A DNA stretch of 64,000 nt from Eledone cirrhosa (lineage: Eukaryota). The DNA lies in the NCBI GenBank assembly GCA_964016885.1, contig OZ024740.1, forward strand, positions 384,772,001 through 384,836,000, given 5' to 3'. The first letter of the stretch is position 1, and each line of letters starts with the position of its first letter. Of the stretch, positions 22,086-64,000 are shown one piece after another. Both the position numbers and the translations under genes were made by a program. The notes under the pieces are model-generated. The model worked only from the letters and a program-made list of their open reading frames with translations, was not told the DNA's origin and ran no database searches.

Positions 22086-22158
<73 letters not shown>

Positions 22159-22357
22159 ATATATATACATACATAAATACATACATATATATATATAAGC
22201 AGAAGGGATATTCAATGTGTTGGTAATTCAACAAATATAAATGTTTATAATACTTATAATACAACAAATATAAATGTCTATTATACTTTCCAGGGATAAC
22301 TTGAACCGTTAAGGTATATTATCCTTGGTTATGTCAAATATTTATAAAACATTTTGC

Positions 22358-22416
22358 ATTTTATCTGATGATAGCGTACCAACATTTCGGTACGCTTGAA
22401 ATATATATAATAGAAT
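22358..22416 (+). ncRNA. Type I hammerhead ribozyme in a third copy of the 21-22 kb family
   Basis: ATTTTAT-CTGATGA-t-AGCGTACC aacatttc GGTACGCT-t-GAAA-TATATA-TA-ATAGAAT; 8-bp perfect stem II. Confidence 0.8.
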
Positions 22417-35760: not shown

Positions 35761-36057
35761 CTTCAATGATTGTATTGTTGCGGAATGAATTTTATTTGTA
35801 AAGCCATTAGCACTTAAATCTACATTATAATAATGGTTTCTGATTTAGGGACAAGGCCTGCAAATTTTGGAGGAGGGTAAAGTCGATTAAACCGACTCCA
35901 TTGCGTGACTGTTACTTTATTTTGTCTACCCCGTAAGGATGAAAAGCAAAGCTAACCTCAGCGGGATTTGAACTCAGAAGGTAAATGGTCGTAACTCTAT
36001 ACTGCAAAGCAAGTTGTCCAACGCTCAGAGAGGCGGTAATAGATGCATAGATATATT

Positions 36058-36099
<42 letters not shown>

Positions 36100-36725
36100 T
36101 GTGTGTATAAATAAATACATGTATATGTATATCTATATATATAAAATTAAGTATGTGTGTGTGTGTGTCTGTGTATTTCATATAGGGGCCTACATTTACG
36201 ACCGATTTTCATGAAACTTTACAGGCTCGTGAATTAGTCATCGGGGAGTCTTTTCTATATATCAGCGTATCGTTCTTTTTATTCCGGTGTCATTAAATAT
36301 TCAAAAATAAGTCAACCAAATACACAAAATCTTAGTTAAAACAAATTAAAGGGAAGTAAACCTTGATACCTAACAAGCAGGACAGAAGGAATTATTTCCC
36401 GTTGATAGTTACTCTAATCGGTTAAAACAATTGCCACACAATGACAAATGTCTTCTTGGTCGCTCTGTCAGCTAAAAATACATTGAACAAAATATTTAAG
36501 TAAAATCATCTTAAGAAACATCAACATTCTATTATGAGACACTACTAATGTAAAAGGACGAATGTAGGAGAAATCGTCAATCCATATAAACTTTCACCAT
36601 TAACTCAGCAGACGACATCACTTAATATCTACACTCCTACATCGATCTGTATGTTAATTCTCTCTCTCTCTCTCTATTATATATATATAATCTTTCTCTC
36701 TATTTTATATATATCTGTATATATA

Positions 36726-36783
36726 TAAATGTAAGTATGTATGTATACGTACATACATATATGTATACAGACGTACAGTAGCA

Positions 36784-36830
<47 letters not shown>

Positions 36831-37261
36831 GTACACATATATATATGCACGCATCAGTTTAGCGGATGCTTATTATAACGCCGCTTTGTTCGTTTGTAAA
36901 CAAACTGAACAGCCTGAATTTATGCCATACGGTGTTAAGGCAACCACGTCACCTTTTTGTTCAACACTGACACAGGAACGATGTACTAGTTTCAAGCTTG
37001 TTAGCTATCATCAGCACCGTATACCCATCTAACAGATAGTTGAACGTTCGAAAGTATATACTTTCCTTATGAAAATTAACGGCTGAGCAGCCTAATTTGC
37101 ATATTGAGTGAGTTAAATCGGTCAGGCATACCGAAAACGATAAGTTGAAAAAAAAAATGAAAACGAAATTTCATTTCTCACTCTTAGTATGGCACTTACA
37201 TAAATGTAAGTATGTATGTATACGTACATACATATATGTATACAGACGTACAGTAGCATGC

Positions 37262-37292
<31 letters not shown>

Positions 37293-38186
37293 TATACATA
37301 CAGGTACACATACATATATGCACGCACCAGTTTAGCGGACGCTTATTATAACGCCGCTTTGTTCGTTTGTAAACAAACTGAACAGCCTGAATTTATGCCA
37401 TACGGTGTTAAGGCAACCACGTCACCTTTTTGTTCAACACTGACACAGGAACGATGTACTAGTTTCAAGCTTGTTAGCTATCATCAGCACCGTATACCCA
37501 TCTAACAGATAGTTGAACGTTCGAAAGTATATACTTTCCTTATGAAAATTAACGGCTGAGCAGCCTAATTTGCATATTGAGCGAGTTAAATTGGTCAGGC
37601 ATACCGAAAACGATAAGTTGAAAAAAAATGAAAACGAAATTTCATTTCTCACTCTTAGTATGGCACTTACTTAAATGTAAGTATGTATGTATACGTACAT
37701 ACATATATGTATACAGACGTACAGTAGCATGCATATATATATACATATATATACATACAGGTACACATACATATATGCACGCATCAGTTTAGCGGACGCT
37801 TATTATAACGCCGCTTTGTTCGTTTGTAAACAAACTGAACAGCCTGAATTTATGCCATACGGTGTTAAGGCAACCACGTCACCTTTTTGTTAAACACTGA
37901 CACAGGAACGATGTACTAGTTTCAAGCTTGTTAGCTATCATCAGCACCGCATACCCATCTGCCAGATAGTTGAACGCTCGAAAGTATATACTTTCCTTAT
38001 GAAAATTAACGGCTGAGCAGCCTAATTTGCATATTGAGTGAGTTAAATCGGTCAGGCATACCGAAAACGATAAGTTGAAAAAAAATGAAAACGAAATTTC
38101 ATTTCTCACTCTTAGTATGGCACTTACTTAAATGTAAGTATGTATGTATACGTACATACATATATGTATACAGACGTACAGTAGCA

Positions 38187-38230
<44 letters not shown>

Positions 38231-38313
38231 CAGGTACACATACATATATGCACGCATCAGTTTAGCGGACGCTTAATATAACGCCGCTTTGTTCGTTTGT
38301 AAACAAACTGAAC
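36726..38313 (-). repeat. Tandem array (~3.4 units, 457-473 bp) of a hammerhead-containing retrozyme-like repeat homologous to the 467-bp satellite
   Basis: Repeats at 36978, 37451 and 37908; each has a HHR and ATGCAAAT on the - strand. Confidence 0.88.
36978..37020 (-). ncRNA. Minimal type I hammerhead (copies also at 37451-37493 and 37908-37950)
   Basis: ACGGTG-CTGATGA-t-AGCT aaca AGCT-t-GAAA-CTAG-TA-CATCGT. Confidence 0.85.
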
Positions 38314-38445
38314 AGACGTGGTTGCCTTAACACCGTATGGCGTAAATTCAGGCTGTTCAGTTTGTTTACAAACGAACAAAGCGGCTTTATAATAAGCGTC
38401 CGCTAAACTGATGCGTGCATATATGTATGTGTACCTGTATGTATA

Positions 38446-38542
<97 letters not shown>

Positions 38543-38661
38543 GCATGCTACTGTACGTCTGTATACATATATGTATGTACGTATACATACATACTTACAT
38601 TTAAGTAAGTGCCATACTAAGAGTGAGAAATGAAATTTCGTTTTCATTTTTTTTCAACTTA
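38314..38661 (+). repeat. Inverted partial unit closing the 36.7-38.3 kb array
   Basis: Reverse complement of the preceding unit (gacgtggttgccttaacaccgtatgg...tttcaacttat). Confidence 0.85.
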
Positions 38662-41765: not shown

Positions 41766-42689
41766 GTGTCATAGACAAATCACTGTAGGGTAGATAAAGC
41801 ATCATTCCCTACGGGTATATTCACATTCACGCAACTTAAATCTCTTTTTACTGAGATGTTTTGTATATTCGTGACAATTTTAATTATGTATTATAATAAA
41901 TAATGCTCCTAAATAATTGTTTCTACTTGTTGGCACAAGGCCAGCAATTACCCAGTGCATTACTGGTTCTTTATTTTATCGACCCCGTAAGGATGAAAGG
42001 CAAAGTTAACCTCGGCGGTATTTGAACTCAGAATGGTAAGGGCCGTAACTCTATGCATCAAAGCATGGCGTCCCACCCTCTACCGATACTGCCAATCCAC
42101 TGCCAAATAATGCTCCTAAATAATAGTGAGGTGATTGGGCGACCCGCATTGACTGCTATTCCTAGCGGTATTTTAGGACTGTCTTTTTCTTCGTTTATAC
42201 AGATATTTAATTGTTGATAGGTTCACGCATGCGTGCGGTATTATTATTTTTAATTTGAATGCAACATGCTGGATCGATGAAAGATGAAAAAAAATCCTCT
42301 TAACGGGTATTTATATTTATTTGTTCTTATACCGCACAGAAACTCTCCGATGAAGAATTGGTTCTGGTAATGATTGTCATATCAATTCAGAAAATGCAAT
42401 TCGGGTCGAGGAATTGGTATGGTAATGATGACCTTATCAATCTATTGAAACGGGCTGATTTATTTGTTTTCAATTCAAAAACTGCAATAACGGTCAGGAA
42501 TGCTTGGTAAAGTTTCTTATATTTAAGTTGTTTGAATGTGTGTATATCCTGAGGGAGTGATGCTTTATCTACCCTTCAGTGATTTGTATATGATCCTTTC
42601 TACATATATTGATTTCTCTGAATAAAATATTTTAACAATCTATTTTCATTGAGATGTTATGTATATTCGTGACATTTTTAATTACGTAT

Positions 42690-42964: not shown

Positions 42965-42966
<2 letters not shown>

Positions 42967-44659
42967 GGAAAAAATGAAATTTCATTTCTCACTCTTAGTA
43001 CGGCTGATACTTAAATATAAGTATGTATGTACACGTACATACATATATGTATACAGACGTACACTAGTATGTATATACATACATACATGCACACATATAA
43101 ATATGTACGTATGGGTTTACCGAACATTTATTATAATGTTCGGTTAGTTTGTAAACAAACAGCCCGAATTAAGCCGTACAGTGTTCGGCAACCATGGTTG
43201 CCCTTTAGTTCAACACTAACAAAGGAAGGATGAACTAGTTTATAGCTTACTAGCAGTAAAGCCCGGCGTTGCTCGGGGTCGCTCAGTAGCTGTGTTAAAG
43301 TTACAATGTTAAGTTTCTTTTTTGGCTTAAAAACTGTCGTGTCTACTGTGCAGACTTGCATGTGGTGTTTTTGATTAATATTCCCTCAAACAACAATATG
43401 CCTTATGAAGTTAAGAAAACATAACGATAACCCGAATGTTATAACAAAAGAGGATGCTGGGGATAAAAACTGCACTGGTTATTTATTAACAAAGATCGAA
43501 AATGTAAACACTGCAACGCAGAGAAAAACATTAGCGTAACCAAATTATCAGTTATGTCTGTCTGCACGCCTATATCACCTCTCTGCACGACTGTCTGTCT
43601 GCACGCCTATATCAACTCTCTGCACGACTGTCTGTCTGCACGCCTATATCACCTCTCTGCACGACTGTCTGTCTGCACGCCTATATCACCTCTCTGCACG
43701 ACTGTCTGTCTGCACGCCTATATCATCTCTCTGCACGACTGTCTGTCTGCACGACTGTCTGTCTGCACGCCTAACGAAATTTACAGATACATATATTTTA
43801 AATAAACTTATATAATTTTTGCTTTTTTTTTACGAAATATTTGCTTGTTTTACGTAGTCTTTAAATAGACTTGTTTTCAAGTAAAAATATTGTTTTAAAA
43901 GGCTTTAAATGGAAATGAAGCAAAACGGAAGCTTAGTGTTCGAACTGATGAATTTTGCAGGTCAAAATTTTGCTGGCTCGACAACTGTTCGTGTATTGTG
44001 TTAATGTCATTTTAAACGCTGAGAAAGCCAGCGTAATTTTTTTTATTTTTGCCAGCGTAATTTTTTTAATTTTTGCACGCAGAAAATGTAAACAGAACGT
44101 AAGACGCTACGCTGAATGTAAACAGAACAAAGGGAAATCATTTTTTTTATTTTTGCACGCAGAAAATGTAAAGAGAACGTAAGACGCTACGCTGAATGTA
44201 AACAGAACAAAGGGAAATTACTGATCACTTACGCTCAAAAATCGATACATTATATTCGATGTCGTCAGATAGGGCGGGTCAATTTGAAATATTTTTTTCC
44301 GATGTCTTCGCTAGGGCTCAATGTACAAGTATAGCAATTTCGGTGCAATTCCGTGAGAGATTCTAAGAGGAGATGTGTGCCAAAAATCGATAGACAGACA
44401 GACAACCTCAGTTTTATATATATAGATTAGCACTCATCAGCACCGTAAACCTTCCTGTCAGTCGCTTGAACTTTTGAAAGTATATACTTTCCTCATGCAT
44501 ATTAATGACTGAGCAGCCTAATTTGCATATCGAGTGAGTTAGTCGGCCAGGCGTACCGAAAACGATAAATGGTAAAAAAGAAATTTCATTTCTCACTCTT
44601 AGTACGGCTGATACTTAAATATAAGTATGTATACGCACATACATATATGTATACAGACG

Positions 44660-44665
<6 letters not shown>
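42965..44665 (-). repeat. About 1.2 units of the retrozyme-like family, split by a Helitron
   Basis: 42965-43249 and 44427-44665 rejoin into a unit homologous to 36.7-38.3 kb, including atttgcat and the HHR. Confidence 0.8.
43250..44426 (-). mobile_element. Non-autonomous Helitron with an internal 37-bp tandem repeat (43555-43772)
   Basis: Minus strand A|TCTATATATATAAAA ... CCCGAGCAACGCCGGG ... CTAG|T; A|T target. Confidence 0.85.
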
Positions 44666-44735
<70 letters not shown>

Positions 44736-44742
<7 letters not shown>

Positions 44743-47700
44743 ATACTTTGGGAGGGTCATGTTGCCAATAAGAAACACACGCACCAGTTGCTTTCACTTC
44801 AATTTATTATATATTTATAAATTTATAAATTTACAAATTTACAAACTTATAAATTTCTGGTTGGTTGGTTGGTTCCACAACCCGATAGTTGTTTATATAT
44901 AGTCATAGTCCTTTCGACACACACTCTGTGACCTCTTCAGTGACTGGGGATTCCTTTCTTTGTTTCTGTGCCTTTCCTTTCTTTTATCCTACGCCATTTT
45001 GTTTCTGTGTGTGTGTTGTGTGCTCAGTTTGCGCATGCGCCATATCCGGGTGTCTGTGTGTGTTTGTGTTCATTTATCTATTTGTTTATTTATTTATTTA
45101 TTGTTGGTTGGTTGTTTGTTCTATGTGTGTGTGTGTTTTCATTTTGTCCTGTGTGTGTTTTTATTTTGTCCTTAATTGTAAGTTGTTTGTTCTATGTGTG
45201 TGTGTGTTTTCATTTTGTCCTGTGTGTGTTTTCATTTTGTCCTGTGTGTGTTTTCATTTTGTCCTTAATTGTAAGTTGTGATGTTGCTGTTCCACTCATA
45301 TTTTCTATTTAATTTTGGTTTTAATTCTTTTATGCTTACTGCCTCTGTAATTTGCCTAAACATTGCGTCTTTTCTGTGTGTGGATTCTATTTTTATTTCT
45401 ATGTTCTCTAATCTACCCCTGTGTTCTATCTTAGCATGTTGGTAGAGCACAGATGATTCTTTATTATCTTGGAGGTCTCGCCAGTGTTCATTTATTCGTT
45501 CCCCTATAATACGACCTGTCTCACCTATGTACACTATATTTTTGTTTCTACATTGTCCTTCAGTACATCTTATGCTATACACTACATTTCTAGTTTTACA
45601 GTTAATATGGGGGCTTATTTTACAGGTTATACATTTCTTATCTATACATGAGGGTCTTTGGAACGGGTATGTCTTGCTAATAAGTGTTTTTACGGAGGTA
45701 CCTGGTCTTTCTACTATCTTAATATTGAGATTATGTTTATTTAGGGCCCTTCTAAATTTATAGGCTAGTTCTCCTCTAGGGGTTGTATTACACTCTGGTA
45801 TTTATTGCTATCATACCATGAGTTTATTCTATTGGCCTTGTTCCTAGTTCTTTCTATGCTATTCCAAAATTTGCTCCTATACAAGGGGCAGGTCCCATTT
45901 ATGTCATTATTTACCATTTTTTCCCATTTGGTTCTGGCTCCTTTATACACTCTGATTCTATCTCTCTGATTGTAGCCAGAGAACTGCATACGGGGGATGG
46001 AGTGTTGTATGTGTCTCTCTAGTTCTTCGGGGTTGCACATGCGGGACACATTTCTCATCACCCGTACCAAATCCGCAATCAATATGTTGATTTTGATATG
46101 GTCCGAAATGGCCGAGTTTCGGTGGATCAGATGTTTGGAAGTCATGGGTTTGGCATAATGGGAATGGAGGATTTGTTTTTTGTTGTTAATGGTATCTAAC
46201 CAGAGCTCTGTGTCTAGTACAGGTAATCGATGGTTGGGGTGTCTACTTGGGTAGTCTATAGTAACTCTAATGCTCTGGTGGATGGAGTTTGCTATTTGCT
46301 GGATGCTTTCCATTGTGTTTTTCTCTAGTTCCTGACTGTTCTTTAGTGGGGGTGTCTTAACTACGATGTTTATATGATCTGCGTAGCGGGAGTACATTAT
46401 CAGGGTTAAGCTGTCTTCTAATTGTCCTTTAAGTTTTTGTTTAAGTCTACTGTCCCACCATACCATGAATAAGTTAGCTATGTCGCCTGCAATGCTAACA
46501 CCAATGGCTGCTCCTTCCTCTTGGGCATATGTTTTACCATTAAATTTGAACATATGTTCCTTAAGGGTTAATATTATGCTGGCCCCTACCGCATGTGCAA
46601 TCATTTTCTTCAGTTCATCGTGGTTTTCGGGTGTCCGTATGGCTCTGGTCCACCCGTTCCATCTATCTGTGTGGGTTTTCTTGGCCATTGAGGTAATGGT
46701 AGGTGGTCTGCCTCTTGCTGGTCTTGTAGGGCACAAGTTGCTAAGGTCATAAGTGTCTAGGTAACTATTACTATGGGTAAGCTTAAGTAGAAGTCCCAGC
46801 TCACTGGTATCAATCCCACGGAACTCAACCTTGCTCTCGCTGATCATTTCTACGCATTTCTCCACAGCAAAATCCACGTCAATAGATGGATACAGGGACA
46901 CAACATCCATACCACCTATTATGCAGTTTGTTAGGTCCCCAGATCGGTTACCCGCGCCGATTCTGCTGAGGAGGTCCTCCGTGCTGTCACACACATCTGG
47001 GGACATCTCAATGATGGGGCGATGATCAGGGAGAGGAAGTAGGACAGTCTGTAGTTACTAGCAATGTTAGCCCCACAGACTGGCCGTGTTGGTGGTCACG
47101 GGACAGGGTCCCAGCCCGTTTTATGGTCTTTTCGAAGCCCATACAACGCCGGCACGTCATTGTTCCAGGCCTGGAAGTTGTTGGCAGTCCTTTTGTTGGG
47201 CTGCATTATATTCGTCCACATCACCATATGGGCATTGAGGGCTTTTTCTCTATCCTCATGCTCCTGTGGTGTTACCTCTCTTGTGTTAGTGATGTGGGTT
47301 GCATTGCCTGGATGTAGTTTGGCAGGCTGTCAACCGACATTCTGCCAGACTTGTCTGTTGGAAAACATGCTATCTCTCCATTACGCGAGCGCTGCATGAG
47401 CTTACGCAAGCCATTTGCAGATTTTTCTCCCAGTTGCTGGGCCTCTATTCTATTATGCTTCTTGCTATACTGTTCTATAATATTTCTAAGTTCGGATTTA
47501 GCTATACTAAATTGTGTTTGTTTGTTCATCGACCTGCGACGGCAACTGCGTGCGTTTGTTAAATGGCAAAGTCGTGGCGTGGACTCGTCGTAGGTCGAAT
47601 GATTTATCGGAGGGGTTATAAAACGGAGAGTTCCAGGCTGCTGCTTTATGTGTACTAGTGCTATTATTATTGTTAGTTGTGTTGTTTCTATTTCTATTTC

Positions 47701-48100
47701 CACCAACAGCCTCATGGTTGTTTCTATGTCTCTCATAATTACTCCTGTCTCTTTCCACTGGCTCAATGTTGTTATCTACCCTATTTTGTGTGTCTGTGTG
47801 TTCGTCTTGGTTATTCTCTTTGTCCTTAGTCTCCCATCTCCTTTTGTTGTTGATGTGTGTGTTGTTGTTATTGTTGTCTCTGTGTGTGTTATTGTTGTTG
47901 TGTGTGTTGTTATTGTTGTTTGTGTCTGCGTGTCTGTTGTTGTATCTGGGTATGTTGCTATTGTTGTTGTTGTTGATGTGTGTGTTGTTGTTATTGTTGT
48001 TTGTGTCTGTGTGTCTGTTGTTGTTGGAAAACATTGTAGCGAAAAGCCAACAGTATTCCATAATATATAAGTGACTATAGCGTCAAAATGGGAAAATAGT
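44736..48100 (-). mobile_element. Penelope-like element copy A (longest 5' extent, frameshifted) with 3' pLTR
   Basis: ORF pieces 47272-48061, 45765-47006 and 45265-45582 carry RT ([21 protein letters not shown]) and GIY-YIG (YSIRC...YIGETGR); Asn-rich N-terminal repeats. Confidence 0.9.
44901..44945 (-). ncRNA. pLTR minimal hammerhead of PLE copy A
   Basis: AGTCA-CTGAAGAG-GTCACA gagtg TGTGtC-GAAA-GGAC-TA-TGACT. Confidence 0.75.
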
Positions 48101-48264
48101 TAACGTAAGTTGTGGGAAAAATAATTCAAATTCATCTCAAAGAGAATCAGGATATAGATTCATCCACAGAATTTAGTAAAATCCAGGGGAAAATCAATTG
48201 AACCTTAACTCATGATAAAATAAAGTTAAAAATACTCATCCTTCAAGTTGGAAAAACTTTAAAT

Positions 48265-48344
48265 GCTCTGTATAGTCTTAAAGACTATTTCACGAAAACT
48301 TTCAGTGGAGATGGTCACGGTTGGAATCCGATCCTCAGCAGAGC
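48265..48344 (-). ncRNA. Type I hammerhead with a full 5-bp stem III, upstream of PLE copy A
   Basis: GCTCTG-CTGAGGA-t-CGGA...TTCG-t-GAAA-TAGTC tttaa GACTA-TA-CAGAGC. Confidence 0.7.
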
Positions 48345-48452
48345 TCAACGCGATAACCAAGATTCTCACAGATTAATATGCCAAAAAGGGAATTTAAAAC
48401 AGGCTAGTTCACACTCATGCGTGATTATGAAAAATAAAACGCACATGAGGAA

Positions 48453-48535
<83 letters not shown>

Positions 48536-48537
48536 TT

Positions 48538-48568
<31 letters not shown>

Positions 48569-48587
48569 ATATATATGTATATATATA

Positions 48588-49315
<728 letters not shown>

Positions 49316-49829
49316 TTTATATATATATATATATATATATTGTTACACTTTGGGAGGGTCATGTTGCCAATAAGAAACACACGCACCAGTTGCTTTCACT
49401 TCAATTTAATTTATTAAATATTTATAAATTTCTGGTTGGTTGGTTGGTTCCACAACCAGATAGTTGTTTATATATATATAGTCATAGTTCTTTCGTCACA
49501 CACTCTGTGACCTCTTCAGTGACTGGGGATTTCTTTCTTCGTTTCTGTGCCTTTCCTTTCTTCTATCCTACGCCATTTTGTTTGTGTGTGGGTTGCGTGC
49601 TCAGTTTGCGCATGCGCCACATCCGGGTGTCTGTGTGTGTTTGTGTTCATTTTTCTATTTTTCTATTTATATTTTTCTATTTGTTTGTTTATTTATTTAT
49701 TTATTGTTGGTTGGTTGATTGTTCTATGTGTGTGTGTGTTTTCATTTTGTCTTGTGTGTGTTTTCATTTTGTGTGTGTTTTCAATTGTAAGTTGTTTGTT
49801 CTATGTGTGTGTGTGTTTTCATTTTGTCC

Positions 49830-51803
49830 TTAATTGTAAGTTGTGATGTTGCTGTTCCACTCATATTTTCTATTTAATTTTGGTTTTAATTCTTTTATGC
49901 TTACTGCCTCTGTAATTTGCCTAAACATTGCGTCTTTCTTGTGTGTGGATTCTATTTTTATTTCTATGCTCTCTAATTTACCCCTGTGTTCTATCTTAGC
50001 ATGTTGGTAGAGCACAGATGATTCTTTATTATCTTGGAGGTCTCGCCAGTGTTCATTTATTCGTTCCCCTATACTACGAGCTGTCTCACCTATGTACACT
50101 ACATTTTTGTTTCTACATTGTCCTTCAGTACATCTTATGCTATATACTACATTTCTAGTTTTACAGTTAATATGGGGGCTTATTTTACAGGTTATACATT
50201 TCTTATCTATACATGAGGGTCTTTGGAACGGGTATGTCTTGCTAATAAGTGTTTTTACGGAGGTACCAGGTCTTTCTACTATCTTAATATTGAGATTATG
50301 TTTCTTTAGGGCCCTTCTAAATTTGTAGGCTAGTTCGCCTCTAGGGGTTGTATTGATGAACATTACACTCTGGTATTTATTGCTATCATACCATGAGTTT
50401 ATTCTATTGGCCTTGTTCTTAGTTCTTTCTATTCTATTCCAAAATTTGCTCCTATACAAGGGGCAGGTCCCATTTATGTCATTATTTACCATTTTTTCCC
50501 ATTTGGTTCTGGCTCCTTTATACACTCTGATTCTATCTCTCTGATTGTAGCCAGAGAACTGCATACGGTGGATGAAGTGTTGTATGTGTCTCTCTAGTTC
50601 TTCGGGGTTGCACATGCGGGACACATTTCTCATCACCCGTACCAAATCCGCAATCAGTATGTTGATTTTGGTATGGTCCGAAATGGCCGAGTTTCGGTGG
50701 ATCAGATGTTTGGAAGTCATGGGTTTGGCATAATGGGAATGGAGGATTTGTTTTTGGTTGTTAATAGTATCTAACCAGAGCTCTGTGTCTAGTACAGGTA
50801 ATCGATGGTTGGGGTGTCTACTTGGGTAGTCTATAGTAACTCTAATGCTCTGGTGGATGGAGTTTGCTATTTGCTGGATGCTTTCCATTGTGTTTTTCTC
50901 TAGTTCCTGACTGTTCTTTAGTGGGGGTGTCTTAACTACGATGTTTATATCATCTACGTAGCGGGAGTACATTATCAGGGTTAAGCTGTCTTCTAATTGT
51001 TCATTAAGTTTTTGTTTAAGTCTACTGTCCCACCATACCATGAATAAGTTAGCTATGTCGCCTGCAATGCTAACACCAATGGCTGCTCCTTCCTCTTGGG
51101 CATATGTTTTACCATTAAATTTGAACATATGTTCCTTAAGGGTTAGTTTTATGCTGGCCCCTACCGCATGTGCAATCATTTTCTTCAGTTCATCGTGGTT
51201 TTCGGGTGTCCGTATGGCTCTGGTCCACCCGTTCCATCTATCTGTGTGGGTTTTCTTGGCCATTGAGGTAATGGTAGGTGGTCTGCCTCTTGCTGGTCTT
51301 GTAGGGCACAGGTTGCTAAGGTCATAAGTGTCTAGGTAACTATTACTATGGGTAAGCTTAAGTAGAAGTCCCAGCTCACTGGTATCAATCCCACGGAACT
51401 CAACCTTGCTCTCGCTGATCATTTCGACGCATTTCTCCACAGCAAAATCCACGTCAATAGATGGATACAGGGACACAACATCCATACTGCCTATTATGCA
51501 GTTTGTTAGGTCCCCAGATCGGTTACCCGCGCCGATTCTGCTGAGGAAGTCCTCCGTGCTGTCACACACATCTGGGGACATCTCAATGATGGGGCGTATG
51601 ATCAGGGAGAGGAAGTAGGACAGTCTGTAGTTACTAGCAATGTTAGCCCCACAGACTGGCCGTGTTGGTGGTCCCGCGACAGGGTCCCAGCCTGTTTTAT
51701 GGTCTTTACGAAGCCCATACAATGCCGGCACGTCATTGTTCCAGGCCTGGAAGTTGTTGGCAGTCCTTTTGTTGGGCTGCATTATATTTGTCCACATCAC
51801 CAT
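49830..51803 (-). CDS. Penelope-like RT + GIY-YIG protein (copy B, 5'-truncated)
   Basis: 657 aa; [47 protein letters not shown]...YIGETAR. Confidence 0.88.
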
Positions 51804-52052
51804 ATGGGCATTGAGGGTTTTTCTCTATCCTCATGCTCCTGTGGTATTACCTCTCTTGTGTTAGTGATGTGGGGTTGCATTGCCTGGATGTAGTTGGGCA
51901 GGCTGTCAACCGACATTCTGCCAGACTTGTCTGTTGGAAAGCATGCTATCTCTCCATTACGCGAGCGCTGCATGAGCTTACGCAAGCCATTTGCAGATTC
52001 TTCTCCCAGTTGCTGGGCCTCTATTCTATTATGCTTCTTGCTATACTGTTCT

Positions 52053-54251
52053 AGAATAGAGGCCCAGCAACTGGGAGAAGAATCTGCAAATGGCTTGCGT
52101 AAGCTCATGCAGCGCTCGCGTAATGGAGAGATAGCATGCTTTCCAACAGACAAGTCTGGCAGAATGTCGGTTGACAGCCTGCCAAACTACATCCAGGCAA
52201 TGCAACCCCACATCACTAACACAAGAGAGGTAACACCACAGGAGCATGAGGATAGAGAAAAAACCCTCAATGCCCATATGGTGATGTGGACAAATATAAT
52301 GCAGCCCAACAAAAGGACTGCCAACAACTTCCAGGCCTGGAACAATGACGTGCCGGCGTTGTATGGGCTTCGTAAAGACCATAAAACAGGCTGGGACCCT
52401 GTCGCGGGACCACCAACACGGCCAGTCTGTGGGGCTAACATTGCTAGTAACTACAGACCGTCCTACTTCCTCTCCCTGATCATACGCCCCATCATTGAGA
52501 TGTCCCCAGATGTGTGTGACAGCACGGAGGACATCCTCAGCAGAATCGGCGCGGGTAACCGATCTGGGGACCTAACAAACTGCATAATAGGCAGTATGGA
52601 TGTTGTGTCCCTGTATCCATCTATTGACGTGGATTTTGCTGTGGAGAAATGCGTCGAAATGATCAGCGAGAGCAAGGTTGAGTTCCGTGGGATTGATACC
52701 AGTGAGCTGGGACTTCTACTTAAGCTTACCCATAGTAATAGTTACCTAGACACTTATGACCTTAGCAACCTGTGCCCTACAAGACCAGCAAGAGGCAGAC
52801 CACCTACCATTACCTCAATGGCCAAGAAAACCCACACAGATAGATGGAACGGGTGGACCAGAGCCATACGGACACCCGAAAACCACGATGAACTGAAGAA
52901 AATGATTGCACATGCGGTAGGGGCCAGCATAAAACTAACCCTTAAGGAACATATGTTCAAATTTAATGGTAAAACATATGCCCAAGAGGAAGGAGCAGCC
53001 ATTGGTGTTAGCATTGCAGGCGACATAGCTAACTTATTCATGGTATGGTGGGACAGTAGACTTAAACAAAAACTTAATGAACAATTAGAAGACAGCTTAA
53101 CCCTGATAATGTACTCCCGCTACGTAGATGATATAAACATCGTAGTTAAGACACCCCCACTAAAGAACAGTCAGGAACTAGAGAAAAACACAATGGAAAG
53201 CATCCAGCAAATAGCAAACTCCATCCACCAGAGCATTAGAGTTACTATAGACTACCCAAGTAGACACCCCAACCATCGATTACCTGTACTAGACACAGAG
53301 CTCTGGTTAGATACTATTAACAACCAAAAACAAATCCTCCATTCCCATTATGCCAAACCCATGACTTCCAAACATCTGATCCACCGAAACTCGGCCATTT
53401 CGGACCATACCAAAATCAACATACTGATTCCGGATTTGGTACGGGTGATGAGAAATGTGTCCCGCATGTGCAACCCCGAAGAACTAGAGAGACACATACA
53501 ACACTTCATCCACCGTATGCAGTTCTCTGGCTACAATCAGAGAGATAGAATCAGAGTGTATAAAGGAGCCAGAACCAAATGGGAAAAAATGGTAAATAAT
53601 GACATAAATGGGACCTGCCCCTTGTATAGGAGCACATTTTGGAATAGAATAGAAAGAACTAAGAACAAGGCCAATAGAATAAACTCATGGTATGATAGCA
53701 ATAAATACCAGAGTGTAATGTTCATCAATACAACCCCTAGAGGCGAACTAGCCTACAAATTTAGAAGGGCCCTAAAGAAACATAATCTCAATATTAAGAT
53801 AGTAGAAAGACCTGGTACCTCCGTAAAAACACTTATTAGCAAGACATACCCGTTCCAAAGACCCTCATGTATAGATAAGAAATGTATAACCTGTAAAATA
53901 AGCCCCCATATTAACTGTAAAACTAGAAATGTAGTATATAGCATAAGATGTACTGAAGGACAATGTAGAAACAAAAATGTAGTGTACATAGGTGAGACAG
54001 CTCGTAGTATAGGGGAACGAATAAATGAACACTGGCGAGACCTCCAAGATAATAAAGAATCATCTGTGCTCTACCAACATGCTAAGATAGAACACAGGGG
54101 TAAATTAGAGAGCATAGAAATAAAAATAGAATCCACACACAAGAAAGACGCAATGTTTAGGCAAATTACAGAGGCAGTAAGCATAAAAGAATTAAAACCA
54201 AAATTAAATAGAAAATATGAGTGGAACAGCAACATCACAACTTACAATTAA
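52053..54251 (+). CDS. Penelope-like RT + GIY-YIG protein (copy C, 5'-truncated, open frame; possibly Naiad/Neptune-related)
   Basis: Uninterrupted from the fold-back centre to the stop; same motifs as copy B; the first ~53 aa of the 785-aa ORF come from the opposite arm. Confidence 0.9.
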   Translation, partial: RIEAQQLGEESANGLRKLMQRSRNGEIACFPTDKSGRMSVDSLPNYIQAMQPHITNTREVTPQEHEDREKTLNAHMVMWTNIMQPNKRTANNFQAWNNDVPALYGLRKDHKTGWDPVAGPPTRPVCGANIASNYRPSYFLSLIIRPIIEMSPDVCDSTEDILSRIGAGNRSGDLTNCIIGSMDVVSLYPSIDVDFAVEKCVEMISESKVEFRGIDTSELGLLLKLTHSNSYLDTYDLSNLCPTRPARGRPPTITSMAKKTHTDRWNGWTRAIRTPENHDELKKMIAHAVGASIKLTLKEHMFKFNGKTYAQEEGAAIGVSIAGDIANLFMVWWDSRLKQKLNEQLEDSLTLIMYSRYVDDINIVVKTPPLKNSQELEKNTMESIQQIANSIHQSIRVTIDYPSRHPNHRLPVLDTELWLDTINNQKQILHSHYAKPMTSKHLIHRNSAISDHTKINILIPDLVRVMRNVSRMCNPEELERHIQHFIHRMQFSGYNQRDRIRVYKGARTKWEKMVNNDINGTCPLYRSTFWNRIERTKNKANRINSWYDSNKYQSVMFINTTPRGELAYKFRRALKKHNLNIKIVERPGTSVKTLISKTYPFQRPSCIDKKCITCKISPHINCKTRNVVYSIRCTEGQCRNKNVVYIGETARSIGERINEHWRDLQDNKESSVLYQHAKIEHRGKLESIEIKIESTHKKDAMFRQITEAVSIKELKPKLNRKYEWNSNITTYN

Positions 54252-54556
54252 GGACAAAATGAAAACACACACACACATAGAACAAACAACTTACAATTGA
54301 AAACACACACAAAATGAAAACACACACAAGACAAAATGAAAACACACACACACATAGAACAAACAACCAACCAACAATAAATAAATAAATAAACAAACAA
54401 ATAGAAAAATATAAATAGAAAAATAGAAAAATGAACACAAACACACACAGACACCCGGATGTGGCGCATGCGCAAACTGAGCACGCAACCCACACACAAA
54501 CAAAATGGCGTAGGATAGAAGAAAGGAAAGGCACAGAAACGAAGAAAGAAATCCCC

Positions 54557-54601
54557 AGTCACTGAAGAGGTCACAGAGTGTGTGACGAAAGAACTATGAC
54601 T
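54557..54601 (+). ncRNA. pLTR minimal hammerhead of PLE copy C (mirrors at -49480-49524 and -55742-55786)
   Basis: AGTCA-CTGAAGAG-GTCACA gagtg TGTGAC-GAAA-GAAC-TA-TGACT. Confidence 0.85.
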
Positions 54602-54798
54602 ATATATATATAAACAACTATCTGGTTGTGGAACCAACCAACCAACCAGAAATTTATAAATATTTAATAAATTAAATTGAAGTGAAAGCAACTGGTGCGT
54701 GTGTTTCTTATTGGCAACATGACCCTCCCAAAGTGTAACAATATCGGTTTCAACACACGATTTCAGATAAAGAATCTTGCTAAACAAATTCAGAAACG

Positions 54799-54856
<58 letters not shown>

Positions 54857-54875
54857 ATATATATGTATATATATA

Positions 54876-56056
<1,181 letters not shown>

Positions 56057-56412
56057 TAACAACAACGAAACTAGTTCAATATTCCTTGTCTGGCTTTCTG
56101 GAGAATAGAGGAGAGGTGTTTCCTCAAAAACCAGTATGACTCTAAAAACCGGTTTGTCTGTGTGTTTACATACAGAATAGCTGGCCACTCACAGTAAAGT
56201 GACCAGTGAAAAAACTTGGTACACCTACATATGTATACGTGTGTGTATTCATATACATACTAGTATTTCAGTATACATATATGGATGTACATCTTTAACT
56301 TAATTGTTTAAGCGTCAGTCATACAAAAGTGAGTTACAAACGAAACGAAATTTAATTTCGTTTCGTTATTTGTTTTTATCGTCTCCGTTGAACCGGTACT
56401 TACTCACACTCT

Positions 56413-56420
56413 ATGCAAAT
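56413..56420 (+). promoter_or_regulatory. Octamer ATGCAAAT (snRNA-type distal element candidate), once per unit
   Basis: ctATGCAAATtag; also conserved in diverged family members at ~37097, ~37568, ~38025 and ~44521 (- strand). Confidence 0.55.
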
Positions 56421-56505
56421 TAGTCTGCCCACTACTAATTTTCATAGAAAAAGCATATAACGATATGTGCTTTTACGATTCTCTAGAGAGGCCGGAAGAT
56501 AGGTA

Positions 56506-56550
56506 AATATTGCTGATGAGTTGTAACAACAACGAAACTAGTTCAATATT
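56506..56550 (+). ncRNA. Minimal type I hammerhead ribozyme, repeated every 467 bp (16 complete copies)
   Basis: AATATTG-CTGATGA-GTTG taacaa CAAC-GAAA-CTAG-TT-CAATATT; predicted cleavage after 56543. Confidence 0.93.
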
Positions 56551-59500
56551 CCTTGTCTGGCTTTCTGGAGAATAGAGGAGAGGTGTTTCCTCAAAAACCA
56601 GTATGACTCTAAAAACCGGTTTGTCTGTGTGTTTACATACAGAATAGCTGGCCACTCACAGTAAAGTGACCAGTGAAAAAACTTGGTACACCTACATATG
56701 TATACGTGTGTGTATTCATATACATACTAGTATTTCAGTATACATATATGGATGTACATCTTTAACTTAATTGTTTAAGCGTCAGTCATACAAAAGTGAG
56801 TTACAAACGAAACGAAATTTAATTTCGTTTCGTTATTTGTTTTTATCGTCTCCGTTGAACCGGTACTTACTCACACTCTATGCAAATTAGTCTGCCCACT
56901 ACTAATTTTCATAGAAAAAGCATATAACGATATGTGCTTTTACGATTCTCTAGAGAGGCCGGAAGATAGGTAAATATTGCTGATGAGTTGTAACAACAAC
57001 GAAACTAGTTCAATATTCCTTGTCTGGCTTTCTGGAGAATAGAGGAGAGGTGTTTCCTCAAAAACCAGTATGACTCTAAAAACCGGTTTGTCTGTGTGTT
57101 TACATACAGAATAGCTGGCCACTCACAGTAAAGTGACCAGTGAAAAAACTTGGTACACCTACATATGTATACGTGTGTGTATTCATATACATACTAGTAT
57201 TTCAGTATACATATATGGATGTACATCTTTAACTTAATTGTTTAAGCGTCAGTCATACAAAAGTGAGTTACAAACGAAACGAAATTTAATTTCGTTTCGT
57301 TATTTGTTTTTATCGTCTCCGTTGAACCGGTACTTACTCACACTCTATGCAAATTAGTCTGCCCACTACTAATTTTCATAGAAAAAGCATATAACGATAT
57401 GTGCTTTTACGATTCTCTAGAGAGGCCGGAAGATAGGTAAATATTGCTGATGAGTTGTAACAACAACGAAACTAGTTCAATATTCCTTGTCTGGCTTTCT
57501 GGAGAATAGAGGAGAGGTGTTTCCTCAAAAACCAGTATGACTCTAAAAACCGGTTTGTCTGTGTGTTTACATACAGAATAGCTGGCCACTCACAGTAAAG
57601 TGACCAGTGAAAAAACTTGGTACACCTACATATGTATACGTGTGTGTATTCATATACATACTAGTATTTCAGTATACATATATGGATGTACATCTTTAAC
57701 TTAATTGTTTAAGCGTCAGTCATACAAAAGTGAGTTACAAACGAAACGAAATTTAATTTCGTTTCGTTATTTGTTTTTATCGTCTCCGTTGAACCGGTAC
57801 TTACTCACACTCTATGCAAATTAGTCTGCCCACTACTAATTTTCATAGAAAAAGCATATAACGATATGTGCTTTTACGATTCTCTAGAGAGGCCGGAAGA
57901 TAGGTAAATATTGCTGATGAGTTGTAACAACAACGAAACTAGTTCAATATTCCTTGTCTGGCTTTCTGGAGAATAGAGGAGAGGTGTTTCCTCAAAAACC
58001 AGTATGACTCTAAAAACCGGTTTGTCTGTGTGTTTACATACAGAATAGCTGGCCACTCACAGTAAAGTGACCAGTGAAAAAACTTGGTACACCTACATAT
58101 GTATACGTGTGTGTATTCATATACATACTAGTATTTCAGTATACATATATGGATGTACATCTTTAACTTAATTGTTTAAGCGTCAGTCATACAAAAGTGA
58201 GTTACAAACGAAACGAAATTTAATTTCGTTTCGTTATTTGTTTTTATCGTCTCCGTTGAACCGGTACTTACTCACACTCTATGCAAATTAGTCTGCCCAC
58301 TACTAATTTTCATAGAAAAAGCATATAACGATATGTGCTTTTACGATTCTCTAGAGAGGCCGGAAGATAGGTAAATATTGCTGATGAGTTGTAACAACAA
58401 CGAAACTAGTTCAATATTCCTTGTCTGGCTTTCTGGAGAATAGAGGAGAGGTGTTTCCTCAAAAACCAGTATGACTCTAAAAACCGGTTTGTCTGTGTGT
58501 TTACATACAGAATAGCTGGCCACTCACAGTAAAGTGACCAGTGAAAAAACTTGGTACACCTACATATGTATACGTGTGTGTATTCATATACATACTAGTA
58601 TTTCAGTATACATATATGGATGTACATCTTTAACTTAATTGTTTAAGCGTCAGTCATACAAAAGTGAGTTACAAACGAAACGAAATTTAATTTCGTTTCG
58701 TTATTTGTTTTTATCGTCTCCGTTGAACCGGTACTTACTCACACTCTATGCAAATTAGTCTGCCCACTACTAATTTTCATAGAAAAAGCATATAACGATA
58801 TGTGCTTTTACGATTCTCTAGAGAGGCCGGAAGATAGGTAAATATTGCTGATGAGTTGTAACAACAACGAAACTAGTTCAATATTCCTTGTCTGGCTTTC
58901 TGGAGAATAGAGGAGAGGTGTTTCCTCAAAAACCAGTATGACTCTAAAAACCGGTTTGTCTGTGTGTTTACATACAGAATAGCTGGCCACTCACAGTAAA
59001 GTGACCAGTGAAAAAACTTGGTACACCTACATATGTATACGTGTGTGTATTCATATACATACTAGTATTTCAGTATACATATATGGATGTACATCTTTAA
59101 CTTAATTGTTTAAGCGTCAGTCATACAAAAGTGAGTTACAAACGAAACGAAATTTAATTTCGTTTCGTTATTTGTTTTTATCGTCTCCGTTGAACCGGTA
59201 CTTACTCACACTCTATGCAAATTAGTCTGCCCACTACTAATTTTCATAGAAAAAGCATATAACGATATGTGCTTTTACGATTCTCTAGAGAGGCCGGAAG
59301 ATAGGTAAATATTGCTGATGAGTTGTAACAACAACGAAACTAGTTCAATATTCCTTGTCTGGCTTTCTGGAGAATAGAGGAGAGGTGTTTCCTCAAAAAC
59401 CAGTATGACTCTAAAAACCGGTTTGTCTGTGTGTTTACATACAGAATAGCTGGCCACTCACAGTAAAGTGACCAGTGAAAAAACTTGGTACACCTACATA

Positions 59501-62500
59501 TGTATACGTGTGTGTATTCATATACATACTAGTATTTCAGTATACATATATGGATGTACATCTTTAACTTAATTGTTTAAGCGTCAGTCATACAAAAGTG
59601 AGTTACAAACGAAACGAAATTTAATTTCGTTTCGTTATTTGTTTTTATCGTCTCCGTTGAACCGGTACTTACTCACACTCTATACAAATTAGTCTGCCCA
59701 CTACTAATTTTCATAGAAAAAGCATATAACGATATGTGCTTTTACGATTCTCTAGAGAGGCCGGAAGATAGGTAAATATTGCTGATGAGTTGTAACAACA
59801 ACGAAACTAGTTCAATATTCCTTGTCTGGCTTTCTGGAGAATAGAGGAGAGGTGTTTCCTCAAAAACCAGTATGACTCTAAAAACCGGTTTGTCTGTGTG
59901 TTTACATACAGAATAGCTGGCCACTCACAGTAAAGTGACCAGTGAAAAAACTTGGTACACCTACATATGTATACGTGTGTGTATTCATATACATACTAGT
60001 ATTTCAGTATACATATATGGATGTACATCTTTAACTTAATTGTTTAAGCGTCAGTCATACAAAAGTGAGTTACAAACGAAACGAAATTTAATTTCGTTTC
60101 GTTATTTGTTTTTATCGTCTCCGTTGAACCGGTACTTACTCACACTCTATGCAAATTAGTCTGCCCACTACTAATTTTCATAGAAAAAGCATATAACGAT
60201 ATGTGCTTTTACGATTCTCTAGAGAGGCCGGAAGATAGGTAAATATTGCTGATGAGTTGTAACAACAACGAAACTAGTTCAATATTCCTTGTCTGGCTTT
60301 CTGGAGAATAGAGGAGAGGTGTTTCCTCAAAAACCAGTATGACTCTAAAAACCGGTTTGTCTGTGTGTTTACATACAGAATAGCTGGCCACTCACAGTAA
60401 AGTGACCAGTGAAAAAACTTGGTACACCTACATATGTATACGTGTGTGTATTCATATACATACTAGTATTTCAGTATACATATATGGATGTACATCTTTA
60501 ACTTAATTGTTTAAGCGTCAGTCATACAAAAGTGAGTTACAAACGAAACGAAATTTAATTTCGTTTCGTTATTTGTTTTTATCGTCTCCGTTGAACCGGT
60601 ACTTACTCACACTCTATGCAAATTAGTCTGCCCACTACTAATTTTCATAGAAAAAGCATATAACGATATGTGCTTTTACGATTCTCTAGAGAGGCCGGAA
60701 GATAGGTAAATATTGCTGATGAGTTGTAACAACAACGAAACTAGTTCAATATTCCTTGTCTGGCTTTCTGGAGAATAGAGGAGAGGTGTTTCCTCAAAAA
60801 CCAGTATGACTCTAAAAACCGGTTTGTCTGTGTGTTTACATACAGAATAGCTGGCCACTCACAGTAAAGTGACCAGTGAAAAAACTTGGTACACCTACAT
60901 ATGTATACGTGTGTGTATTCATATACATACTAGTATTTCAGTATACATATATGGATGTACATCTTTAACTTAATTGTTTAAGCGTCAGTCATACAAAAGT
61001 GAGTTACAAACGAAACGAAATTTAATTTCGTTTCGTTATTTGTTTTTATCGTCTCCGTTGAACCGGTACTTACTCACACTCTATGCAAATTAGTCTGCCC
61101 ACTACTAATTTTCATAGAAAAAGCATATAACGATATGTGCTTTTACGATTCTCTAGAGAGGCCGGAAGATAGGTAAATATTGCTGATGAGTTGTAACAAC
61201 AACGAAACTAGTTCAATATTCCTTGTCTGGCTTTCTGGAGAATAGAGGAGAGGTGTTTCCTCAAAAACCAGTATGACTCTAAAAACCGGTTTGTCTGTGT
61301 GTTTACATACAGAATAGCTGGCCACTCACAGTAAAGTGACCAGTGAAAAAACTTGGTACACCTACATATGTATACGTGTGTGTATTCATATACATACTAG
61401 TATTTCAGTATACATATATGGATGTACATCTTTAACTTAATTGTTTAAGCGTCAGTCATACAAAAGTGAGTTACAAACGAAACGAAATTTAATTTCGTTT
61501 CGTTATTTGTTTTTATCGTCTCCGTTGAACCGGTACTTACTCACACTCTATGCAAATTAGTCTGCCCACTACTAATTTTCATAGAAAAAGCATATAACGA
61601 TATGTGCTTTTACGATTCTCTAGAGAGGCCGGAAGATAGGTAAATATTGCTGATGAGTTGTAACAACAACGAAACTAGTTCAATATTCCTTGTCTGGCTT
61701 TCTGGAGAATAGAGGAGAGGTGTTTCCTCAAAAACCAGTATGACTCTAAAAACCGGTTTGTCTGTGTGTTTACATACAGAATAGCTGGCCACTCACAGTA
61801 AAGTGACCAGTGAAAAAACTTGGTACACCTACATATGTATACGTGTGTGTATTCATATACATACTAGTATTTCAGTATACATATATGGATGTACATCTTT
61901 AACTTAATTGTTTAAGCGTCAGTCATACAAAAGTGAGTTACAAACGAAACGAAATTTAATTTCGTTTCGTTATTTGTTTTTATCGTCTCCGTTGAACCGG
62001 TACTTACTCACACTCTATGCAAATTAGTCTGCCCACTACTAATTTTCATAGAAAAAGCATATAACGATATGTGCTTTTACGATTCTCTAGAGAGGCCGGA
62101 AGATAGGTAAATATTGCTGATGAGTTGTAACAACAACGAAACTAGTTCAATATTCCTTGTCTGGCTTTCTGGAGAATAGAGGAGAGGTGTTTCCTCAAAA
62201 ACCAGTATGACTCTAAAAACCGGTTTGTCTGTGTGTTTACATACAGAATAGCTGGCCACTCACAGTAAAGTGACCAGTGAAAAAACTTGGTACACCTACA
62301 TATGTATACGTGTGTGTATTCATATACATACTAGTATTTCAGTATACATATATGGATGTACATCTTTAACTTAATTGTTTAAGCGTCAGTCATACAAAAG
62401 TGAGTTACAAACGAAACGAAATTTAATTTCGTTTCGTTATTTGTTTTTATCGTCTCCGTTGAACCGGTACTTACTCACACTCTATGCAAATTAGTCTGCC

Positions 62501-64000
62501 CACTACTAATTTTCATAGAAAAAGCATATAACGATATGTGCTTTTACGATTCTCTAGAGAGGCCGGAAGATAGGTAAATATTGCTGATGAGTTGTAACAA
62601 CAACGAAACTAGTTCAATATTCCTTGTCTGGCTTTCTGGAGAATAGAGGAGAGGTGTTTCCTCAAAAACCAGTATGACTCTAAAAACCGGTTTGTCTGTG
62701 TGTTTACATACAGAATAGCTGGCCACTCACAGTAAAGTGACCAGTGAAAAAACTTGGTACACCTACATATGTATACGTGTGTGTATTCATATACATACTA
62801 GTATTTCAGTATACATATATGGATGTACATCTTTAACTTAATTGTTTAAGCGTCAGTCATACAAAAGTGAGTTACAAACGAAACGAAATTTAATTTCGTT
62901 TCGTTATTTGTTTTTATCGTCTCCGTTGAACCGGTACTTACTCACACTCTATGCAAATTAGTCTGCCCACTACTAATTTTCATAGAAAAAGCATATAACG
63001 ATATGTGCTTTTACGATTCTCTAGAGAGGCCGGAAGATAGGTAAATATTGCTGATGAGTTGTAACAACAACGAAACTAGTTCAATATTCCTTGTCTGGCT
63101 TTCTGGAGAATAGAGGAGAGGTGTTTCCTCAAAAACCAGTATGACTCTAAAAACCGGTTTGTCTGTGTGTTTACATACAGAATAGCTGGCCACTCACAGT
63201 AAAGTGACCAGTGAAAAAACTTGGTACACCTACATATGTATACGTGTGTGTATTCATATACATACTAGTATTTCAGTATACATATATGGATGTACATCTT
63301 TAACTTAATTGTTTAAGCGTCAGTCATACAAAAGTGAGTTACAAACGAAACGAAATTTAATTTCGTTTCGTTATTTGTTTTTATCGTCTCCGTTGAACCG
63401 GTACTTACTCACACTCTATACAAATTAGTCTGCCCACTACTAATTTTCATAGAAAAAGCATATAACGATATGTGCTTTTACGATTCTCTAGAGAGGCCGG
63501 AAGATAGGTAAATATTGCTGATGAGTTGTAACAACAACGAAACTAGTTCAATATTCCTTGTCTGGCTTTCTGGAGAATAGAGGAGAGGTGTTTCCTCAAA
63601 AACCAGTATGACTCTAAAAACCGGTTTGTCTGTGTGTTTACATACAGAATAGCTGGCCACTCACAGTAAAGTGACCAGTGAAAAAACTTGGTACACCTAC
63701 ATATGTATACGTGTGTGTATTCATATACATACTAGTATTTCAGTATACATATATGGATGTACATCTTTAACTTAATTGTTTAAGCGTCAGTCATACAAAA
63801 GTGAGTTACAAACGAAACGAAATTTAATTTCGTTTCGTTATTTGTTTTTATCGTCTCCGTTGAACCGGTACTTACTCACACTCTATGCAAATTAGTCTGC
63901 CCACTACTAATTTTCATAGAAAAAGCATATAACGATATGTGCTTTTACGATTCTCTAGAGAGGCCGGAAGATAGGTAAATATTGCTGATGAGTTGTAACA

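Follow-up and report, generated by a model that had tools for sequence, protein, structure and literature searches.

The window analyzed here, a stretch of 64,000 nucleotides of contig OZ024740.1 (positions 384,772,001 to 384,836,000 of the forward strand), closes with a tandem array on the plus strand (array A, 56052..64000), in which 17 head-to-tail units of 467 bp carry one hammerhead ribozyme each and which runs past the window end. Repeat finding returned a period of 467 with 17.0 copies and 99% matches; 15 of the 17 copies are identical, and the other two (copies 8 and 16) share a single G>A change. The unit has a GC content of 0.35, the array holds no open reading frame (ORF) of 150 aa in the ORF list of the window, and a tRNA search of the unit found none, so that a short, non-coding and AT-rich unit, one of the features of metazoan non-long-terminal-repeat (non-LTR) retrozymes, is present in array A. 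The segment in question, within the first units of the array, probably represents the half that bears the ribozyme in a 467-base repeat of the retrozyme type from an octopus, and an octopod host is probable because an Octopus vulgaris protein is the best homologue of a neighboring Penelope-like ORF. This segment contains both motifs that an initial annotation had proposed as parts of a small nuclear RNA (snRNA)-type promoter, namely the octamer ATGCAAAT and a motif resembling a proximal sequence element (PSE), ACCAGTATGACTCTAAAA. Below, we describe the ribozyme and its relatives in the window, and argue that the PSE-like motif is likely kept as one strand of an RNA helix and not as an snRNA core promoter.

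The type I hammerhead motif spans 56495..56566 (+), with its core at 56506-56550, as delimited by Rfam alignment and direct reading of the sequence. An Rfam search of the whole window at gathering thresholds gave 0 matches; aligned with RF02275 (Hammerhead_HH9), the unit hammerhead covers the full model with 37.7 bits and an E value of 5e-8, below the gathering score of 52, which supports the hammerhead repeat described in the initial annotation. Helix I is formed by AATATTG and CAATATT, the core CTGATGA lies at 56513, and helix II (GTTGT/ACAAC) is followed by GAAA, while helix III measures only 2 bp and forms the palindrome ACTAGT (RNA ACUAGU). The predicted cut falls after GUU, between 56543 and 56544.

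Two diverged relatives reside on the minus strand of the same window, where the initial annotation had already quoted sequence contexts that could be located. Family B (36725..38315) comprises 3.4 units of 457-473 bp, each with an octamer (37095-37102, 37568-37575 and 38025-38032), a hammerhead with a GUA site, and a counterpart of the PSE-like motif, CACCGTATGGCATAAA, at 36924, 37397 and 37854. Family C (42965..44660), which had not been set apart before, is a separate relative preserved as a single decayed copy with its octamer at 44521-44528; its hammerhead carries TAAA instead of GAAA and is interrupted by an insertion of ~1.18 kb (about 43248-44427). Pairwise identity amounts to 59% between A and B, 63% between A and C, and 78% between B and C. 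Ribozyme cores are intact in A and B despite the 59% overall identity, and thus one type I hammerhead per tandem unit, as expected of retrozymes, was found in both arrays.

The octamer was confirmed at 56413-56420, and its assignment to the best-conserved block of the repeat also held: with 12 nt, the block TATGCAAATTAG (56412..56423, +) exceeds every other run on which A, B, and C agree, ahead of the ribozyme cores (9 and 8 nt) and of the 8-nt motif TGTTTACA. A run of at least 12 appeared in 1.1% of 20,000 column shuffles, which places the octamer above background, although this figure is optimistic given that B and C are 78% alike and only three lineages were compared. When a unit was shuffled 3,000 times with its dinucleotides preserved, the exact octamer arose on either strand in 2-5% of cases; the 52,302 nt of the window outside the family contain it three times. 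Counted from the list of A/B/C runs, six of the ~450 windows of eight bases beyond the ribozyme core show no variation. Because the octamer is that infrequent in shuffled units and invariant windows are that few, its coincidence with an invariant block is unlikely to be due to chance, even allowing for several motifs that might have been noticed. The same block forms the 5' arm of a predicted hairpin, whose partner arm (56435..56446, inverted) reads TATGAAAATTAG on the minus strand, a second octamer with seven of eight matches. Across the three families the octamer arm is constant, whereas 4 of the 12 places in its partner arm vary, none of the 11 pairs is changed on both sides, and the C of the octamer is left unpaired in the hairpins predicted for A and B. 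Since two-sided changes are lacking, RNA pairing alone fails to explain the invariance of the octamer, and the block is, in this comparison, constrained in sequence beyond the needs of its predicted hairpin.

The sole polymorphism among the 17 copies of array A, overlooked by the initial annotation, falls within this octamer: the G>A change producing ATACAAAT is found at 59684 (+) in copy 8 and again at 63420 in copy 16. Exactly eight units separate these two copies, a distance suggestive of the duplication of a block inside the array or of an artifact of assembly. Three contig sets from outside sequencing runs, described further below, contain 17 substitution places, and those in the octamer block are 56419 A>G, seen in one contig at a depth of 4.3 and perhaps an error, and 56422 A>G, seen in two runs; both changes retain pairing as G-U. 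Taken together, close A copies vary at 18 places, and three of these belong to the 12-nt octamer block, which makes up 12 of 476 nt (P about 0.01); two of the three lie within the 8-mer.

The PSE-like motif was found where the initial annotation had placed it, at 56597-56614 (+). Its proposed identity was examined by scoring the ten SNAPc-contact positions of the human U6-1 PSE (PMC9652321), a human template from which the PSE of the host may differ. On this template the site in A matches two or three of the ten contact bases, values reached by 715 or 442 of 934 sites in the unit, and one extra base separates CC from GT; the corresponding sites in B and C match six (13 of 914 sites as good) and five (57 of 842 sites as good). 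Hence, the fit in unit A is that of background and an snRNA-type PSE was not recovered there. One other candidate, read on the partner strand near 56312-56329, obtained the top score in A (7/10) and was rejected, as its register is not common to B and C and its octamer spacing is not snRNA-like; its score demonstrates that PSE scores of this kind are common. No PSE sequence of a mollusc was found in the papers searched.

The core of the motif, GTATGACT (56601-56608), forms instead the 5' strand of a predicted long-range helix of eight pairs, with AGTCATAC (56784..56791, +) as its 3' strand, so that both candidate promoter motifs are arms of predicted RNA helices, a feature missed by the initial annotation. 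The helix is common to the three families, being formed by GTATGGCA and TGCCATAC in B (for instance, 37853-37860 with 37658-37665) and by GTACGGCT (43172-43179) and AGCCGTAC (42998-43005) in C. RNAalifold predicts it unprompted, and in circular folds of single units 23 of its 24 pairs reach pairing probabilities of 0.85-1.0 and one reaches 0.63, with values of 0.4-0.6 in one other B monomer. In the covariation test, 32 of 32 cells were paired and three of the eight pairs had changed on both sides, a result equaled in 11 of 500 shuffles, and control partners slid along the sequence were paired in 12-38% of cases. These compensatory two-sided changes allow the conservation of the PSE-like core to be attributed to an RNA helix, which would close a domain of ~175 nt in the unit RNA. 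Whole monomers also folded much more stably than their shuffled versions, and more so on the ribozyme strand, with z-scores of -10.2, -7.5, and -10.7 on that strand and of -6.0, -3.1, and -3.5 on the other (25 shuffles each). A strongly self-paired monomer circle, a further retrozyme feature, is therefore predicted, with z-scores of -7.5 to -10.7 and one covarying helix. We regard the covariation, drawn from three lineages, as good but not conclusive evidence, and the model in which the PSE-like motif is kept as a helix strand as likely.

Several observations weigh against this interpretation. Only three lineages are available, two of them 78% alike, and related sequences can outperform shuffles without any structure; likewise, 11 of 500 shuffles falls short of the strictest level of the covariation test. 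At predicted paired sites, 8 of 12 substitutions keep pairing and four break it, and the retention of pairing by 8 of 10 transitions, compared with 54% expected, is a weak signal (P 0.09). The octamer hairpin, with no two-sided change, leaves its own block unexplained by RNA pairing. An RNA helix is also compatible with a second role as a DNA site, and the absence of all 17 outside substitution places from 56597-56614 (fully covered by two of the three runs) fits a helix and a DNA site equally. Finally, the flatworm PSE is quite different from the human one (PMC5460494), and the PSE of the host could still match the motif.

These points bear on the reading in which every unit would contain an snRNA-type polymerase II promoter, with an Oct-bound octamer, a SNAPc-bound PSE dual-coded as DNA site and RNA strand, and an RNA start near 56650-56660. 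Vertebrate snRNA promoters combine a distal sequence element (DSE; POU2F1 octamer and ZNF143 motif) with a PSE (PMC3499247; PMC9652321), and the repeat resembles them in carrying the exact octamer at a matching distance from the candidate core. The spacing, given as about 180 nt in the initial annotation, amounts to 185 (A), 170 (B), and 168 (C) nt from octamer to CC, which is snRNA-like and within the human range; if CC is set at -62/-61, an assumed register, the octamer lies at -247, -232, and -230, respectively, and human snRNA octamers are located mostly around -200 to -240, with that of U8 at -249 (PMC3499247, Figure S9). Further in favor of this promoter are the octamer as longest invariant block, the contrast between its fixed 5' arm and a partner arm that is variable at 4 of 12 places, and the SNAPc contact positions of family B, where CCGT and a 3' half rich in A/T are present. 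The candidate core differs from its vertebrate counterparts in its two to three matching contact bases in A, in its position internal to a repeat, and in being a predicted RNA helix strand whose covariation already accounts for the motif. The three variable places in the octamer block, one of them possibly an error, also speak against it, as do the invertebrate systems, in which octamers are not universal: the distal element of sea urchin U6 is an E-box (bioRxiv 2023.01.09.523328), and the snRNA "OCT" of Schistosoma japonicum is imperfect (PMC5460494). We consider a complete snRNA-type promoter in each unit unlikely.

The closest analog of such an arrangement is newt satellite 2, which Coats, Zhang, and Epstein reportedly described in 1994 as having an internal snRNA-type promoter. 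Like array A, the newt satellite is a hammerhead tandem repeat with a short palindromic helix III and an octamer inside the unit, a likeness drawn by description and not by sequence. The newt ribozyme is located downstream of the start site and not between octamer and PSE, whereas here it lies between the octamer and the PSE-like site, a difference that weighs against an snRNA-type promoter in the unit. The internal snRNA-type promoter of newt satellite II, as cited in PMC2220036, is nonetheless a precedent for a promoter of this type within a hammerhead repeat. From the promoter-plus-hammerhead architecture of the initial annotation, the hammerhead repeat, the conserved octamer, and the spacing between octamer and "PSE" were retained, and the PSE itself was not.

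A U6-like polymerase III promoter would use the octamer, the PSE and TTTACA as a TATA-like box at about -30 to produce an RNA of ~190 nt ending at the T-run 56840-56844. The motif TGTTTACA (56630..56637, +) is indeed invariant in A, B, and C and, by hand count from the alignment, occupies the expected U6 TATA site in A and B; the distance from the PSE-like CC to the start of TTTACA is 33 nt in A and 32 nt in B, near the type 3 PSE-TATA layout, and T-runs of 5-9 follow in both families. In C, however, the box is 6 nt closer (26 nt), and the motif is a non-canonical TATA sequence in the loop of a small predicted hairpin, so that no TATA box was recovered. Considering also the poor PSE fit in A, and that the resulting RNA, lacking both ribozyme and promoter, would be unable to propagate the unit, transcription of this kind seems very improbable.

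At the other extreme, the repeat might be an inert satellite in which the octamer block and the helices are relics, conserved through shared descent and chance. The interrupted, dead-looking ribozyme of copy C and the variants among close copies, which do not spare the octamer, agree with inertness. The compensatory changes and the strand-biased folding contradict it, together with the ribozyme cores left intact in A and B at 59% overall identity and the tandem joint recovered in three of the four outside runs examined, and we judge it to be highly unlikely.

The octamer is consequently the part of the repeat left unexplained, and it may be a transcription-factor site. Within the best explanation, a retrozyme whose PSE-like motif serves as a helix strand, the octamer block is somewhat more likely than not to be an RNA element or else a stem that changes slowly. 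The alternative, a POU-factor site that aids transcription by way of some core promoter distinct from this "PSE", has somewhat less than an even chance. Over all readings, the case for a functional POU site is close to evenly balanced, and its specific use as an enhancer-like site with another core promoter is doubtful.

Comparison with described elements placed the repeat among the metazoan non-LTR retrozymes, all of whose sequence-level features it displays, a class assignment made from sequence. Like them (Cervera and de la Pena 2020, PMC7229834; Li, Clavereau and Pollet 2026, bioRxiv 10.64898/2026.07.22.740005), it consists of non-coding units in tandem, each bearing a single type I hammerhead, and it has in common with them a GC content under 50%, a predicted self-paired circle, and Penelope-like elements in the same genome. 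Non-LTR retrozyme units measure 150-450 bp according to PMC7229834 and 51-972 bp according to bioRxiv 2026.07.22.740005; the units of 457-473 bp found here slightly exceed the former range and lie within the latter. A molluscan precedent exists in the mussel retrozymes of 350-390 bp (PMC7229834; bioRxiv 2026.07.22.740005), and in the parts covered these two papers mention neither octopus, cephalopods nor a promoter of the elements' own. In a literature made up mostly of non-subscription papers, with the supplement of PMC7229834 outside its scope, no description of this family or of an octamer in an invertebrate retrozyme was found.

The region adjoining array A (44616-56057) is made up of copies of a single Penelope-like family, nested in both direct and inverted orientation, with two long inverted ORFs (49830-51824, minus; 51894..54251, plus) encoding reverse transcriptase (RT) and GIY-YIG domains, and with six pseudo-LTR hammerhead cores. 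The ORF at 51894..54251 belongs to the candidate mobilizing element, in which Pfam detected RVT_1 and GIY-YIG, both below curated cut-offs. Its best homologue among 55 is the Octopus vulgaris protein (69% identical), which supports the mollusc host proposed in the initial annotation. Co-occurrence with Penelope-like elements, another retrozyme feature, is thus evident in RT and GIY-YIG ORFs that adjoin array A and are accompanied by hammerheads of their own. At 56052-56057, array A meets an oppositely oriented pseudo-LTR piece (55476..56057, minus; own hammerhead at 55753-55781) through a 6-nt microhomology, AGTTGT, a joint that arose either by insertion into the Penelope-like element or when the reverse transcriptase of that element switched templates. 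The hammerhead of the unit resembles those of Penelope-like pseudo-LTRs in being of type I, with a small palindromic helix III and an expected action as dimer (Cervera and de la Pena 2014, PMC4209133). It departs from the elements themselves in that the unit has no ORF and that its likeness to the local pseudo-LTR is confined to 21 nt at its end. These last 21 nt before (TA)n (54782-54802) resemble the GAAACGAAAT hairpin of unit A (56338-56375) at 18 of 21 places (E 0.023), and the equivalent hairpin lies close to where the inverted B piece and copy C have their 3' ends. From these sequence similarities, a hairpin of the GAAACGAAAT type is a possible shared 3' recognition signal.

The inverted partial B unit (38316..38660, +) abuts the 5' end of the B array and ends beside TA-rich sequence, in a Penelope-style insertion structure. 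The combination of an inverted 5' partner with a microsatellite in family B follows the insertion pattern of Penelope-like elements, and the TA-rich ends of both B and C match their insertion features (Craig et al., bioRxiv 2021.04.23.441226). Just upstream of the PSE-like site, family B alone carries TGACGT, similar to a cAMP response element (CRE)/ATF site (37876-37881, 37419-37424, and 36946-36951, minus), which is absent from A and C. An ATF/CREB site is part of the newt satellite 2 promoter. The ~1.18-kb insertion of copy C (43248-44427, +) breaks helix II of its hammerhead, and its ends resemble those of non-autonomous Helitron-type elements. Elsewhere in the window, five more hammerhead-like cores (CTGATGA/CTGAAGA...GAAA) lie within short inverted and direct repeats at 21243-22401, at first sight unrelated to A-C. 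Broken reading frames with 69-bp repeats at 39061-39900 (+), for which the piece tested had no Pfam match, resemble the N-terminal part of a Helitron Rep/helicase, and 35850-35990 and 41930-42050 are presumably two copies of a short interspersed repeat known from octopus sequences.

Words of the unit were also present in 20 of 24 listed sequencing runs, under 17 organism labels and from 16 studies. The library types are mostly unrecorded and no holder is recorded as RNA, which is uninformative either way. Four of the 24 runs were examined for unit copies, namely the contig sets X5, X12, and X16 and the raw reads of X21. The contig sets yielded 11, 1, and 3 pieces of the unit, respectively, at low depth and each with a joint returning after 467 nt, and the roughly 1% of X21 that was read yielded none. 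Close tandem or circular copies therefore exist beyond this assembly, in pieces too few for a per-position conservation test. They are no proof of conservation across species, because another sample of a holder's label gave nothing. Unit words occur in runs of 17 labels, yet other samples of two of these labels lack them, and presence looks sample-specific and of low depth. Such a pattern could stem from carry-over, from DNA of prey or of the environment, or from an element of patchy distribution.

Pattern searches for the ribozyme returned 16 loci in metagenome contigs, 13 in prokaryote genomes, and 0 in viral contigs, and the combined octamer-plus-ribozyme pattern returned at least 120 loci in viral contigs. 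Among the matches listed (149 loci), only one metagenome locus, L012, resembles the unit, over the 38-nt ribozyme only, and none of the 149, L012 included, passed a strict hammerhead filter. An octamer located 155 nt downstream of the L012 ribozyme was treated as chance. L012:701-738 and a second metagenome contig, L002:701-738, share the same hammerhead type (CTGATGA, a stem II hairpin, and GAAACTAGTA), and in L012, read by eye, the ribozyme lies just behind the apparent GIY-YIG end of a Penelope-like element, so that this ribozyme type likewise resembles the Penelope-like pseudo-LTR hammerheads.

The described cycle of metazoan retrozymes, with array transcription, dimer cutting by hammerheads of short helix III, circularization, and a Penelope-like RT (PMC7229834; PMC4209133; bioRxiv 2026.07.22.740005), offers a model for the present family. 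RNA polymerase II would read through the array, and the hammerheads, with their 2-bp palindromic helix III, would work in pairs to cut the transcript into monomers of 457-473 nt, which would circularize with strong self-pairing. For new insertion at TA-rich sites, the circles could then serve as templates of a Penelope-like element, for instance the adjoining one. In this RNA the PSE-like motif would serve as architecture, closing the ~175-nt domain. Observed in the window are the motifs, the tandem repeat, the hammerhead consensus, the helix covariation, and the Penelope-like neighbors; cleavage, circles, and mobilization, as well as any promoter activity, are our inference.

How animal retrozymes are transcribed is a question that the papers on the class, in the parts covered, do not address with respect to the promoter (PMC7229834; bioRxiv 2026.07.22.740005), and the promoter precedents for hammerhead repeats are one newt and one schistosome (PMC2220036). 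A cephalopod family in which an exact octamer is the most conserved block constitutes a compact and testable case. Since the PSE-like motif pairs with a distant strand, mutants both with and without restored pairing would be needed. If no promoter is present, the repeat represents a new but ordinary retrozyme family, one of whose helices is supported by covariation. It is in our view rather improbable that the retrozymes of octopods possess an Oct/SNAPc snRNA-type promoter of their own, placed on both sides of the ribozyme and with both DNA sites doubling as RNA stems of the circle; if true, a hammerhead repeat would have recruited the snRNA transcription machinery independently for a second time, here outside amphibians, and the high-level transcription of animal retrozymes in all tissues would be explained. 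As it stands, the repeat adds a new family to a known class of elements, and its octamer is a lead that is real, though unproven.

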